A DNA stretch of 64,000 bases from an uncultured delta proteobacterium (GTDB lineage: Bacteria > Desulfobacterota > BSN033 > UBA1163), in the NCBI GenBank assembly GCA_963827685.1, contig CAWHBU010000003.1, positions 416,001 through 480,000 of the forward strand. Direction: 5' to 3'. Every line of letters begins with the position of its first letter. Positions within the stretch are counted from its first letter, which is position 1. Below the pieces are notes generated by a model, which searched no databases, was not told the DNA's origin, and saw nothing but the letters and a program-made list of their open reading frames with translations. Below are positions 58,241 through 63,848 of this stretch, piece after piece. The position numbers and the translations under genes were made by a program.

Positions 58241-58478
58241 ATGATTTAACTCCGCAGTCCGGCATGCCCTCCACGACGTATTTTACCTTTGAATTACAGA
58301 ATGACGGAACGCTGAAAGGAACCTTTGATACACGGGGCAGTTTGGGTATCTCAAGGAAGGCAACAATGAGGAGAGTTGATTGATATGAACGCCTTTGCCC
58401 CAATCTGATTAGCATGCACGCTTTCTACTTGTAATTGTTACCTTGTGATGTGCCAGAATCCTCAACCTTTGTAGTCAA

Positions 58479-59672
58479 CTATACTTCGACCACCTCCTTC
58501 TGAAAGTAAGATTTAGTTGTTAGCATGGCAAAAAGGACCCTCAGCAATTTATGAGCCGTGGCAAGAATTGCTTTTTTAGGCGGTAATCCTTCTGCCTTCC
58601 TTTTAAGAAAATATTGCCTGAAAATATTATTGCTCCTTACCACACAAGTGGTCATAAGGAAAATCACTCGTCTTAGGTGACGATTTCCTCTCTTGGATAT
58701 TCTGCTGATTCCCTCATATTGACCTGACTGGTGAACGGAGGGATCAAGCCCTGCAAAAGCAATCACATGCTTGTGGGATTTGAAATGGTTCATCTCTCCC
58801 AACTCCGCTAAAAAAGTAGAACCGTTAATCTGCTTGATCCCATCGATGGAGGTGATAATCTCGAGATCCTCCACTCTCATCGACTGGCAGGTCTTCACCA
58901 ATACCCCTGTGATCTTTTTCCTCTTCTCTTCGAGATAAAGAAGGGTGGAAATCTTCTCTGAGAGGATTAGTTCCTTGGCTGCACTGTCAGTGGCCACAGA
59001 GGCCTTGGCCATTTGAATAATCTCTTCGGCACTGATCAATACTCGTTTCCTTTTCCCTTCGACATGGATCAGGGCCTTGGCAATCTCTTTGGGCTTTGCC
59101 GCTGTTAGGGTCCTGGCCGAAGGAAACTTGATCAGAACGTGGAGCATCGTCTCCGTAAAGATCTTACACCGATGCTCCAGCTCCGGAAAAGTCATCTTGA
59201 GGAGCCTCCGGATGTCATTCTTTAACCCCGAGATCATCACCGTCAGAGATTCTCGCTCTCTGGCCAGGTCCTTGAGATCCTGACTATTCTGTGAAAACGC
59301 GACCTTGGAAAGGGAATCTTTGTGAGCCAAAAGGAACTGAGCAATGGTAAGAGCATCCTTCTTATCCGTCTTGGTCTTCCTTAAAGATAACCTGGCAAAA
59401 TTGCTAATCAGCAGAGGGTTGATCACCACACAGGGAATCCCTTCCGAAGAAAGAAAGGAAAATAGATTGATGTGGTAACAACCCGTGGATTCCATCGCCA
59501 CGGTAACCTCTGAAAGATTCCCACAATGGGCCTTCACCCTGTCCAGAAACCGAGAAAATCCCTCTCCATCCATTGAAAACTCAAGATAAAAGAGTTTCTT
59601 CCCTTCACGATCTAACCCTTGAGCTGAAGCATAATCCTTAGAAACGTCAATCCCAACGAAAAGTGTCGACAC
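58479..59672 (-). CDS. IS110 DEDD transposase/recombinase
   Basis: GIDVSK, MESTG, KTDKKDA, AGLDPSVHQSG, ISKRGN. Confidence 0.95.
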   Translation of the reverse strand: MSTLFVGIDVSKDYASAQGLDREGKKLFYLEFSMDGEGFSRFLDRVKAHCGNLSEVTVAMESTGCYHINLFSFLSSEGIPCVVINPLLISNFARLSLRKTKTDKKDALTIAQFLLAHKDSLSKVAFSQNSQDLKDLARERESLTVMISGLKNDIRRLLKMTFPELEHRCKIFTETMLHVLIKFPSARTLTAAKPKEIAKALIHVEGKRKRVLISAEEIIQMAKASVATDSAAKELILSEKISTLLYLEEKRKKITGVLVKTCQSMRVEDLEIITSIDGIKQINGSTFLAELGEMNHFKSHKHVIAFAGLDPSVHQSGQYEGISRISKRGNRHLRRVIFLMTTCVVRSNNIFRQYFLKRKAEGLPPKKAILATAHKLLRVLFAMLTTKSYFQKEVVEV

Positions 59673-59704
59673 TGTTACACCTCCTTTTTAAATTGTTAGA
59701 GAAT

Positions 59705-59875
59705 AGGCAGGATGAGCCTCCCCACCAAACCTCCATCATAACAAGGGTTCTTTAGACCCAACCAACCTATCAGGGTTTGGGGAGGCAGGGGACACACTAC
59801 AAAAAGGATTCAATGACCCAGGTGAAAATCAAGTCCTCCTGCCCCTTCCTCTTGAATGGCTTTACCCATTCATTA
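59705..59875 (-). ncRNA. Candidate IS110 bridge RNA
   Basis: 5' hairpin plus two stem-loops with large internal loops; loop-1 strands match the joined flanks. Confidence 0.65.
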
Positions 59876-60157
59876 TGTCATGCCCTTATAACATACTTGA
59901 TGAGTAGGAGGTGTATTCCTCCCAAAAAAGAAAATCCATATTCAATTGTCAAAGAGCAAGACAGGTAAAAATAACTCTGCCTTTTTTTGTTTCTTTCTTC
60001 CTGAAATCCGGAACTCTTAACTTTACCTGATAATGCAACCTTTCAATCAGTAATCGACGACCTGGAGAGTAGAAGCAATAGCTGAAGGACAGGGCGATTT
60101 CATGCCCTGCTTTTATGGTTTGTTAGCCTATAAAGAACTGAAGAGTGGATGGGCAGT

Positions 60158-62269
60158 CTATTTAATCTTTTGATACAAGGCATTTGCCAAACCAGGATTC
60201 ATCGTTTTGAGGATTTCATATTCTTTCAGGGCAAAGCCATGATTACCAATCATAAGATATGCATTTCCAAGGTTGTAATGTGCCTCCGCATAGTCTGGCT
60301 TGATTCTTAGGGCCTCGGCGAAATGGGCAACGGCCTCCTGGGTCTTTCCTTGCCCAGCAAGAGCAATTCCAAGGTTGTAGTGGGCCACCGCAAAGTCTGG
60401 CTTGATTCTCAGGGCCTCGGCATAATGGGCAACGGCCTCCTGGGTCTTTCCTTGCCCGGCAAGAGCAACTCCCAGGTTGTTGTGTGCATCCGCATAGTCT
60501 GGCTTGATTCTCAGGGCCTCGGCATAATGGGCAATGGCCTCCTGGGTCTTTCCCTGCCCGGCAAGAGCAATTCCAAGGTTGTAGTGGGCCCGCGCATAGT
60601 CTGGCTTGATTCTTAGGGCCTCGGCGAAGTGGGCAATGGCCTCCTGGGTCTTTCCCTGCCCAGCAAGAGCAATTCCAAGGTTGTTGTGTGCATCCGCATA
60701 GTCTGGCTTGATTCTCAGGGCCTCGGCATAATGGGCAATGGCCTCCTGGGTCTTTCCCTGCCCGGCAAGAACAAGTCCAAGGTTGTTGTGTGCCTCCTCA
60801 TAGTCTGGCTTGATTCTCAGGGCCTCGGCATAATGGGCAATGGCCTCCTGGGTCTTTCCCTGCCCGGCAAGAATACCTCCAAGGTTGTTGTGTATTATAA
60901 AGTTGTTAGAAGTCGCAGCAAGGGTATGTTCAAAGAGCGTAATGTCATTTTGCCAATGCTTTAATTGCAAATTTGTAACGATCATCAAAAGTGAAAGCAG
61001 TAGGCCAGTTGATACGGAAAGGACCACTTTACGGAAACGCCACCCCGCCAATATATCCGGAACACCCCAGGCCATCATGATGAACAGACCGATCAGCGGT
61101 ACATACGTAAACCGGTCAGCCAAGGCCTGTGGTCCAGCCTGCACTATTCCAATTACAGGAATAAGAGTTCCAAGGTACCAGAACCACCCTACTACAAGAT
61201 AGGGAAGTTTACGGGCGGCACGAATCACCAGAAGAGATATACAGACTAACAACAAACCGGACCCCAATACCTTCCATATGGGCAGCATCTCTTGGTATGG
61301 ATATAAGACTGTCAGGTGTCGGGGCCAGACCATCTTCTCAATGTAACGAACATAGGATACTAGAGCGTTAGCAATCCGGCTCCCCAATGCGTAACTCTCC
61401 AAAGATACTAGGGCTCCCGCTTTCTGCGTTGCGAAGATGGTCAAAATGCTGGATATCGCGCAAAGGACAAAAAACGGAGCCTTCTCACGAATTAGACGAA
61501 GAACAATAGACTTTTGATCACCTGTATCCGATGATTTGGAAGTGTGTGATTTACGATCACCGCTCAATCGCCCAAAGTGAAAACGGCCAAGGGGCCAATA
61601 GTCAAGCAAAAGAAGTACAAATGGCAGGGTTACGAGCATCGGCTTCGACAAAAGGCCCAGGGTAAAGAATAAGAGCGCCAGCAGATATCTATTGAGCCTC
61701 GGCCGCTCGATATAACGGATATATGTCCACATCGTCAGCATCCAAAAAAAAGTGCTCAGAACATCTTTGCGCTCTGCCGCCCATGCCACCGATTCCACGT
61801 GGAGGGGATGCAATGCAAACAAGGCTGCAACAAAGGCGCTCCTCCAGAGTGCCCCTGTCATCCGTTCAAGAACTAAGAACAGCAAGAGAGCACTGGCAAT
61901 GTGAAAAACCAAGTTGGTCAAATGATGCCCGCTCGGGTTCAAACCATAGAGTTGGCAGTCAAGCATGTGGGATAACCATGTCAATGGAATCCAATGGCCT
62001 GCATGTATGGTCGTGAAAGCCCAGGCCACACCCTCGAGAGTCAATCCGGACTGTACGTGTCGGTTTTCCGTTATGTATGCATTGTCATCTAAGCTTATAA
62101 ATGGACAGGTTCTTACCTGCTCAAAGGTAGCAAAGGTTAGTATCATGAGAAACAGACCGAGCAAGAGTACCAAACCATGTTGATGGAACGACCATCCTTT
62201 TGTACGGAGTGGTTTGCCTTGACTCGGTTTTTCAGTGATGATTTTTTTCTTGACCTTACGCTTTGACAT
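60158..62269 (-). CDS. TMTC-like GT-C membrane glycosyltransferase with TPR repeats
   Basis: DDNAYITEN, HPLHVESVAW..ERKD, ADRFTYVP; C-terminal TPRs. Confidence 0.85.
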   Translation of the reverse strand: MSKRKVKKKIITEKPSQGKPLRTKGWSFHQHGLVLLLGLFLMILTFATFEQVRTCPFISLDDNAYITENRHVQSGLTLEGVAWAFTTIHAGHWIPLTWLSHMLDCQLYGLNPSGHHLTNLVFHIASALLLFLVLERMTGALWRSAFVAALFALHPLHVESVAWAAERKDVLSTFFWMLTMWTYIRYIERPRLNRYLLALLFFTLGLLSKPMLVTLPFVLLLLDYWPLGRFHFGRLSGDRKSHTSKSSDTGDQKSIVLRLIREKAPFFVLCAISSILTIFATQKAGALVSLESYALGSRIANALVSYVRYIEKMVWPRHLTVLYPYQEMLPIWKVLGSGLLLVCISLLVIRAARKLPYLVVGWFWYLGTLIPVIGIVQAGPQALADRFTYVPLIGLFIMMAWGVPDILAGWRFRKVVLSVSTGLLLSLLMIVTNLQLKHWQNDITLFEHTLAATSNNFIIHNNLGGILAGQGKTQEAIAHYAEALRIKPDYEEAHNNLGLVLAGQGKTQEAIAHYAEALRIKPDYADAHNNLGIALAGQGKTQEAIAHFAEALRIKPDYARAHYNLGIALAGQGKTQEAIAHYAEALRIKPDYADAHNNLGVALAGQGKTQEAVAHYAEALRIKPDFAVAHYNLGIALAGQGKTQEAVAHFAEALRIKPDYAEAHYNLGNAYLMIGNHGFALKEYEILKTMNPGLANALYQKIK
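60267..60890. repeat. Six near-identical 102-bp tandem TPR units
   Basis: AHNNLGIALAGQGKTQEAIAHYAEALRIKPDY period visible in DNA. Confidence 0.92.
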
Positions 62270-63639: not shown

Positions 63640-63848
63640 ACGCACCTCCTGTCCAATGATACAAATTCTCAGGTGTGTCCATCAACTCGGGGGAAGGTCA
63701 ATCCATAATCATTTATCCCTCGCTCCTATCAAAGGCGAAGATTTGTAGGTGAACTAACCAACAGATGACTTGACAGTGTCTGTCAGATTAAGTATCGTTC
63801 AGGACAGGTTAGTGCTCCCGCTCTTTCAAAACCAGGTTTACCGCAGAC

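Follow-up and report, generated by a model that had tools for sequence, protein, structure and literature searches.

The stretch of DNA analysed here (the window: 64,000 nt of contig CAWHBU010000003.1, from the genome of an uncultured delta proteobacterium of the Desulfobacterota) carries an IS110-group element on its minus strand, at 58475-59908. This element is very probably an ordinary insertion sequence with the layout of IS621, with nothing unusual in its mechanism and with a canonical bridge RNA encoded in cis, in the 236-nt left end. It measures 1434 bp, or 1436 bp when one CT core is counted. An earlier, sequence-only reading of this DNA had recognised that the non-coding end of the IS110-family gene encodes an RNA with target- and donor-binding loops, and that the first loop guides both strands of the insertion site; both points held. 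It had also invoked a variant mechanism or an altered end, an idea that falls away because the corrected ends fit the published IS621 scheme. One displacement, a left end placed about 20 nt too far out, accounts for all three oddities that it had reported: a missing core, a perfect match to a junction of its own making, and a donor loop that did not fit.

Three genomic copies define the ends and a duplicated CT core

The genome holds three full copies of the element: the window copy (L001), a second on contig 6 (L002) and a third at another place on contig 3 (L003). Each spans 1438 nt when both cores are included (CT, 1434 nt and CT), and the three are identical at 1437 of these positions; the sole difference, at window position 58736, gives Val313 in the window copy and Ile313 in the other two. 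Likeness among the copies stops just before ...CAC-CT-CCTACTC at the left (window 59913-59909) and just after ...TAGTTGA-CT-AC at the right (58473). Read in the direction of the element, the left junctions are GGAATACAC-CT-CCTACTC in the window, GGACTTCAC-CT-CCTACTC in L002 and GGCTTTCAC-CT-CCTACTC in L003, and the right junctions read ATAGTTGA-CT followed by ACAAAGG in the window, ACAAGTC in L002 and ACTACTT in L003. Upstream of CAC-CT, L003 is unrelated to the other two copies, which are about 75% alike there because both sit in one intergenic repeat family.

The core was located with an unoccupied paralogous site (L013), which reads ...GAGAAGTACAC-CT-ACAAATCTTCG (...GTACAC-CT-ACAAATC). This string is shared with the left junction up to CT and with the right junction from CT onward, and the overlap places the left CT core at 59909-59910 (minus strand; AG on the plus strand). 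The right CT core, at 58473-58474 (minus), directly follows ATAGTTGA. The window itself holds a second unoccupied site, AGTTCAC-CT-ACAAA, at 63742-63755 (minus). Element-bearing contigs from three other studies diverge from the window at 58468-58471 and 59913-59915, that is, at the core plus a few guide-specified flank bases, and hence well inside 59930. The element ends at 58475 and 59908, with a duplicated CT core. The sequence-only reading had put the right end at 58476 and the left end at 59930 and had seen no duplicated core; two further genome copies and the homologous loci described below define different ends, with CT at both junctions, which is the outcome that this reading had itself named as refuting it.

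Some further observations concern the copies and sites themselves. Residue 313 sits three residues before the QSG motif of the transposase, and the Ile313 form was present in all four metagenome runs examined. In the contigs of these runs there were break points, but neither a joint spanning the element nor a circle junction; two contig joints (59381/59452 and 59959/59924) have short sides and stem from metagenomes, and are given no weight. The site at 63742-63755 has five of seven left-target positions, the core and five of five right-target positions; it is followed by TCTTCGCC, with GATTATGGATTGA about 35 nt further on, as at L013. More distant IS110-family copies or fragments also occur in the genome (L004 and L005, with 66% nucleotide identity over about 560 nt, L006 and L007), L004 within about 3 kb of L003.

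The left end encodes a two-module RNA

The transposase, or bridge recombinase, gene (58479-59672, minus; 397 aa, GTG start) has its stop codon 4 nt before the right end of the element and is preceded by the non-coding left end (59673-59908). The long upstream non-coding DNA and the stop near the right end mark the left end, on the minus strand, as the RNA-coding end; an RNA upstream of the gene and a minimal right end also assign the element to the IS110 group and not to the IS1111 group. In Pfam, PF01548 (N-terminal DEDD, RuvC-like) matched residues 6-163 (E 7.3e-39) and PF02371 (C-terminal Tnp) residues 271-355 (E 2.2e-25). Of the proteins whose structure has been solved, the nearest are the transposases of ISCro4 (9t56, E 1e-15) and IS621 (8wt6, E 1.4e-15), with which the GIDVS, MEST, KTDxxD (KTDKKD here) and QSG motifs align. 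HQSG of the window protein aligns with YESG of ISCro4, and its serine is probably the catalytic one, judging from the description of S241 in the available text of PMC11208158.

When one genome per species was scanned, 272 relatives came to light; we kept 80 loci (L014-L093; 44-75% protein identity), nearly all of them from metagenome-assembled genomes of Nitrospirota, Thermodesulfovibrionales and Desulfobacterota. Seventy-three loci had 260 nt upstream; six were dropped because their upstream DNA did not align (L040, L047, L068, L088, L052 and L090), and the structure alignment (58 sequences) was made also without L016 (masked bases), L018 (a deletion) and duplicates. For comparison we used the IS621-type layout in the available text of PMC11208160 (Durrant et al. 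2024) and PMC11208158 (Hiraizumi et al. 2024).

The RNAalifold consensus of the 58 sequences contained two modules, each a stem, an internal loop and a hairpin, with 25 pairs, 12 of which show compensatory changes. The target-binding loop (TBL; 59781-59845, minus) comprises a stem (59833-59845/59781-59793), an internal loop and a distal hairpin; in the consensus, its stem occupies columns 104-114/158-167 and its hairpin columns 129-132/141-144, with compensatory changes in, for example, 20 of 58 sequences at pair 112/160. The donor-binding loop (DBL; 59720-59781, minus) has the same three parts; its consensus pairs fall in columns 168-180/228-240 and 193-196/210-213, and compensatory changes occur in 20 of 58 sequences at pair 196/210 and in 10 of 58 at pair 195/211. 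The two loops proposed from the sequence alone are thus borne out by folding across homologues, with compensatory changes in both. A single-sequence fold of a 263-nt stretch was set aside (z = -2.25), as its minimum-free-energy structure mixes the modules, and the alignment consensus was used instead. After the DBL and before the ribosome-binding site of the transposase lies a terminator-like hairpin (59706-59726, minus), with seven pairs followed by TATTCTCT in a consensus scan. This region is conserved in the family alignment, and the hairpin may act as a terminator.

Target guides and, probably, donor guides fit the corrected junctions

The two 9-mers singled out in the sequence-only reading, CACTACAAA at 59795-59803 and GTGAAAATC at 59822-59830, are present as quoted and do flank one internal loop of the non-coding end, that of the TBL. 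On its 5' side, the left target guide (LTG; UUUUCAC-CU, 59820-59828, minus) has the same sense as the core and the left target (AATACAC, 59911-59917, minus), which lies directly 5' of the core; LTG matches target plus core at 6/9 positions in the window copy, 7/9 in L002 and 8/9 in L003. On its 3' side, the right target guide (RTG; UUUGU-AG, 59797-59803, minus) is complementary to CT-ACAAA at 7/7 positions in the window copy, five of them in the right target (ACAAA, 58468-58472, minus). RTG is followed by the TBL handshake guide UG (59795-59796, minus), whose U is complementary to A, the last base of the right end; one of its two positions pairs with the donor GA. In IS621, according to the available text of PMC11208158, the two bases after RTG and after the right donor guide (RDG) pair, after strand exchange, with positions 6-7 of the other DNA.

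These assignments account for the two 9/9 matches reported earlier. Joining 58466-58475 to 59930-59937 does spell CCTTTGTAGTGAAAATCC, but this string is not the empty site, as the copies set other ends. Eight letters of the right-hand match are real (the right target ACAAA, the core CT and the element's last base, this eighth pair being the handshake position of the published scheme), and the ninth came from the wrong join. The left-hand match dissolves into the 7-mer GATTTTC (59930-59936) plus two letters borrowed across that join.

The donor side was reassessed with the corrected ends. The left donor guide (LDG; GGUUGGUU, 59760-59767, minus; family consensus GGUUGAUU) lies in the DBL and can pair with the right end and core, AGTTGA-CT, at 8/8 positions, three of them by wobble. 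It reads UU opposite the CT core (one wobble), the corresponding bases being CU in LTG and AG in both RTG and RDG. GGAG, the core-proximal part of RDG (59731-59734, minus), can pair at 4/4 positions with CT-CC, the core and first bases of the left end, and the DBL handshake guide GU (59729-59730, minus) complements, at 2/2 positions, the terminal AC of the left target. The second loop had been said not to match the circle junction clearly; that junction was predicted from the wrong ends, and with the corrected ends the loop probably does fit the donor.

The ends also carry promoter-like boxes. An extended -10-like box, TGT-TATAAG (59885-59893, minus), lies 18 nt after the core, and its columns G17, T19, A20 and T21 reach 90% conservation or more among the 58 homologues. 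A -35-like box, TTGACT (58473-58478, minus), consists of the right-end terminus TTGA and the core CT, and would face the -10 box in the circle junction only. A consensus scan of the left end in the integrated state found no promoter-like site. We infer that a sigma-70-type promoter would form only across the circle junction; the available text of PMC11208160 describes a natural sigma-70 -35 box in the junction of right and left ends of IS621.

Guides co-vary with flanks across homologues

Both ends of the element are nearly constant in the family. ATAGTTGA at the right and CCTAC at the left start are almost invariant, and TTGA ends the element in every row with a right end except two (L089, TTAA; L092, TAGA). 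At the left junction, 64 of 68 homologue rows have CT as the core, three have CA and one is masked (N); among the 54 rows with a right end, the core at the right junction is CT in 51 and CA in three.

The flanks vary, and the guides vary with them. LTG matched its own left flank at a mean of 4.84 of 7 non-core positions, against 2.92 for non-cognate flanks (56 unique pairs), and RTG matched its own right flank at 3.80 of 5 against 1.88 (41 unique pairs); in each case none of 10,000 permutations, which ignore relatedness among the elements, scored as high. Flanks from different genomes and sites have only target preference in common, despite the relatedness of the elements. The fit of LTG was best directly beside the element (unique best in 36 of 54 pairs, tied best in 7 more), with a mean match of 6.57/9 there and 1.9-3.4 at the other tabulated offsets. 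The DBL handshake guide paired with the guide-specified target end at 79 of 112 positions family-wide, again with 0/10,000 permutations as high. The TBL handshake guide begins with U in 55 of 56 unique RNAs and reads UC, the full complement of GA, in 21. These results show that guides co-vary with flanks across homologues, as the sequence-only reading had anticipated for the loop sequences and their targets.

Donor covariation is thin, the donor ends being almost invariant: it consists of one paired change and the three CA-core loci. In L089, the TTAA right end is paired with a UUAA guide. All three CA-core loci (L044, L045 and L054) have GGUG in place of GGAG, and thus UG in RDG; RTG carries UG in L044 and L054, and reads GU at the aligned position in L045, possibly through an alignment shift. 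The 5' guides of these three loci keep CU or UU.

A shifted exchange register, with the same element and RNA and AC in place of CT as core (left ...TAC-AC-CTCC, right ...TTG-AC-TAC), was considered first. AC does stand at both junctions of all three genome copies. However, empty sites should read TACAC-TACAAA with an AC core and TACAC-CT-ACAAA with a CT core, and L013 and window 63742-63755, both unoccupied, carry the latter string exactly. Where the left target of a homologue ends in TTC or CTA, its left junction lacks AC but keeps CT. Of 68 rows, 64 have AG at the aligned core position of RTG and 65 at that of RDG, and CT is the core of IS621 in the available text of PMC11208158. The AC register was accordingly rejected, the unoccupied-site strings and homologue junctions fitting CT, and we consider it very unlikely.

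A predicted route of insertion

With CT as the core, the parts of the element would act together as follows. A recombinase of the DEDD/Ser type would recombine the circularised element with its target by strand exchange at the CT core, leaving CT at both junctions as seen in the window. LTG and RTG of the TBL would read the two strands of the target, and in the DBL GGUUGGUU would pair with AGTTGA-CT and GGAG with CT-CC, with a two-base handshake guide after each 3' guide. The joined ends would place the TTGACT -35 box 18 nt from the TGT-TATAAG -10 box. By this scheme the element would be transcribed, form a circle and be catalytically active; expression of the RNA, its binding by the recombinase and RNA-directed recombination are putative.

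Several findings count against an ordinary, canonical element, besides the disregard of relatedness in the permutations. An Rfam search of 58300-60100 returned no match at E <= 1, and the RNA assignment rests on our own alignment; five further loci searched at E <= 0.1 gave no relevant family and one chance miRNA match (E 0.063). LDG needs its wobbles to pair throughout, and RDG has a donor pairing assigned for its core-proximal 4 nt, with none assigned for its 5' part. No same-locus empty site was found when the right flank was searched in 30 relatives; the best match, G009 (96%), covers the neighbouring gene only, and the intergenic region there is rearranged. The left target of the window copy has three mismatches to LTG, at its core-distal end, and a look-alike 54 nt away fits LTG better (8/9) than the true site does. 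The perfect 14-nt predicted target has no match in the whole genome. Three genome sites with a single mismatch to it are all unoccupied, and the insertions sit at sites with one to three distal left-guide mismatches.

Flanking repeats and the choice of site

The left flank of the window copy belongs to a modular intergenic repeat (window 59911-60000; also L008, L009, L010, L012 and L013) that recurs downstream of unrelated genes and matches no Rfam family. On the plus strand it consists of a T/A-rich stretch and ATATTCAATTGTCAAAGAG, followed by a hairpin and T-run at about 59960-59990. Two of the three element copies sit in this repeat. IS110 elements habitually land in repeats, with which these two insertions agree.

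The stretch that the sequence-only reading took for the insertion site, GGATTTTC (59930-59937, minus), is a look-alike in the T-rich repeat. It is present in the unoccupied repeat copies L008, L009 and L013, resembles GACTTTC (6/7) beside L002 and is absent beside L003; its presence in unoccupied copies marks the GATTTTC stretch as part of the repeat. The 5.23-Mb genome contains 1697 occurrences of GATTTTC, or 1.6e-4 per strand-position, so that about 0.01 are expected per 60-nt search space at the genome average. When LTG was scanned along the left flank of the window copy, it matched 6/9 at the true position, 6/9 at 17 nt and 8/9 at 54 nt, the last being a second look-alike, TTTTTACCT (59964-59972, minus), 54 nt outside the element. 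Guide and flank are both T-rich, so chance matches are to be expected.

The matches of 6, 7 and 8/9 for LTG, the constant match of RTG and of the core-proximal bases, and the emptiness of better-matching sites together suggest that natural insertions tolerate distal left-guide mismatches. On the same grounds the element might tolerate core-distal LTG mismatches and choose its sites via the conserved multi-copy intergenic repeat, which sits between gene ends and terminator hairpins, and not by guide complementarity alone. We hold this fuller proposal to be doubtful. If it is true, the family, with guides that track related repeats of Nitrospirota and Desulfobacterota, would be a natural case of guide-plus-context targeting ('half-match', or sequence-and-structure).

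A more specific idea keeps the canonical element and gives the T-rich look-alikes GGATTTTC and TTTTTACCT a role, namely to help the ribonucleoprotein dock on the repeat before it acts at a nearby weaker site. A GATTTTC-like stretch accompanies two of the three copies and several unoccupied repeat copies at a similar distance, the true left target of the window copy is weak (6/9), and the available text of a preprint (10.64898/2026.08.31.748434) reports that substrates matching half of a bridge RNA can recombine. Yet L003, which has the best true match (8/9), lacks such a stretch, a T-rich guide beside a T-rich flank would give chance matches, and no family-wide signal appears at the look-alike offsets; docking of this kind thus seems highly improbable. 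Weakest is the model put forward from the sequence alone, an element at 58476-59929 with an empty site made of GGATTTTC joined to ACTACAAAGG, a core-less variant mechanism or altered end, and a donor loop blind to the ends: its joined 18-mer does give 9/9 to both loop strands, and L002 carries GACTTTC at the same distance, but 59911-59929 is unlike among the copies (wholly different in L003, repeat-like in L002) against 1437/1438 inside the element, the GGATTTTC stretch occurs in unoccupied repeat copies too, the guides of 54 homologue pairs fit beside CCTAC (mean 6.57/9) and not 17-22 nt off (1.9-2.4), and CT stands at both junctions, which together leave it next to no credence.

Other repeats and genes were noted near these sites. 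A stretch resembling GATTA(C/T)GGATTGA(AAG) lies 35-55 nt to the right of insertion or target sites in several genomes, at L002, L003, L013, L047, L063 and L072, and at window 63690-63705; in a regex-based collection of 20 loci it did not amount to a family-wide motif. A separate GC-rich hairpin repeat (REP-like, with a GGCCCGCC...GGCGGGCC palindrome) has about 30 matches across the genome when L013 positions ~1-105 are used as query. Beyond the left flank, window 60158-62269 (minus) encodes a membrane protein of 703 aa that contains a long series of TPR-like repeats, and short repetitive open reading frames opposite its gene mirror these repeats.

Significance and comparison with known systems

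The IS110-group element described here has little mechanistic import, since even its handshake guides follow the published bridge-RNA rules. It illustrates in practice why matches between IS110 guides and flanks should not be trusted until several copies have fixed the ends: T-rich guides find look-alikes in T-rich flanks. The analysis also yields about 60 related bridge RNAs from uncultured Nitrospirota, Thermodesulfovibrionales and Desulfobacterota, with their guide variation, 7-nt RTGs and three CA-core members, a set that could serve comparative or engineering work.

Elements of the IS1111 group, with their seekRNAs, likewise pair an IS110-family enzyme with RNA-guided target choice, but have their RNA in the right end, downstream of the transposase gene. 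The window element differs in having its RNA upstream of the gene and a right end that extends only 4 nt past the stop codon. The homologues L014-L093 share its RNA architecture, right-end terminus ATAGTTGA, left-end start CCTAC and CT core; they differ in having guide sequences of their own, each fitting its own flanks, and L044, L045 and L054 in having a CA core. The ISCro4 transposase (9t56), compared at the protein level only, is the best solved-structure match (E 1e-15) and shares the N-terminal DEDD and C-terminal Tnp parts, as a distant relative.

The closest parallel in layout is IS621, as far as the available text of PMC11208160 and PMC11208158 describes it. Both elements combine a DEDD and Ser recombinase with an RNA encoded in the left non-coding end, and both RNAs have two internal loops, whose 5' side is assigned to the bottom strand (9-nt LTG and 8-nt LDG, core included) and whose 3' side is assigned to the top strand, the donor part of this assignment being probable for the window element. 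In either element both junctions carry a CT core, handshake guides lie 3' of RTG and RDG, and insertion is into intergenic repeats; the -35 box in the right end and the -10 box in the left end have putative counterparts in the window element. The window element, by contrast, has an uncultured host, and its protein is only distantly related to that of IS621 (E 1.4e-15, matched over residues 231-386) and has 397 aa against 328. Its RTG is 7 nt long against 4, longer RTGs being noted for some orthologues in the published account, and its LDG differs in reading UU opposite the CT core.

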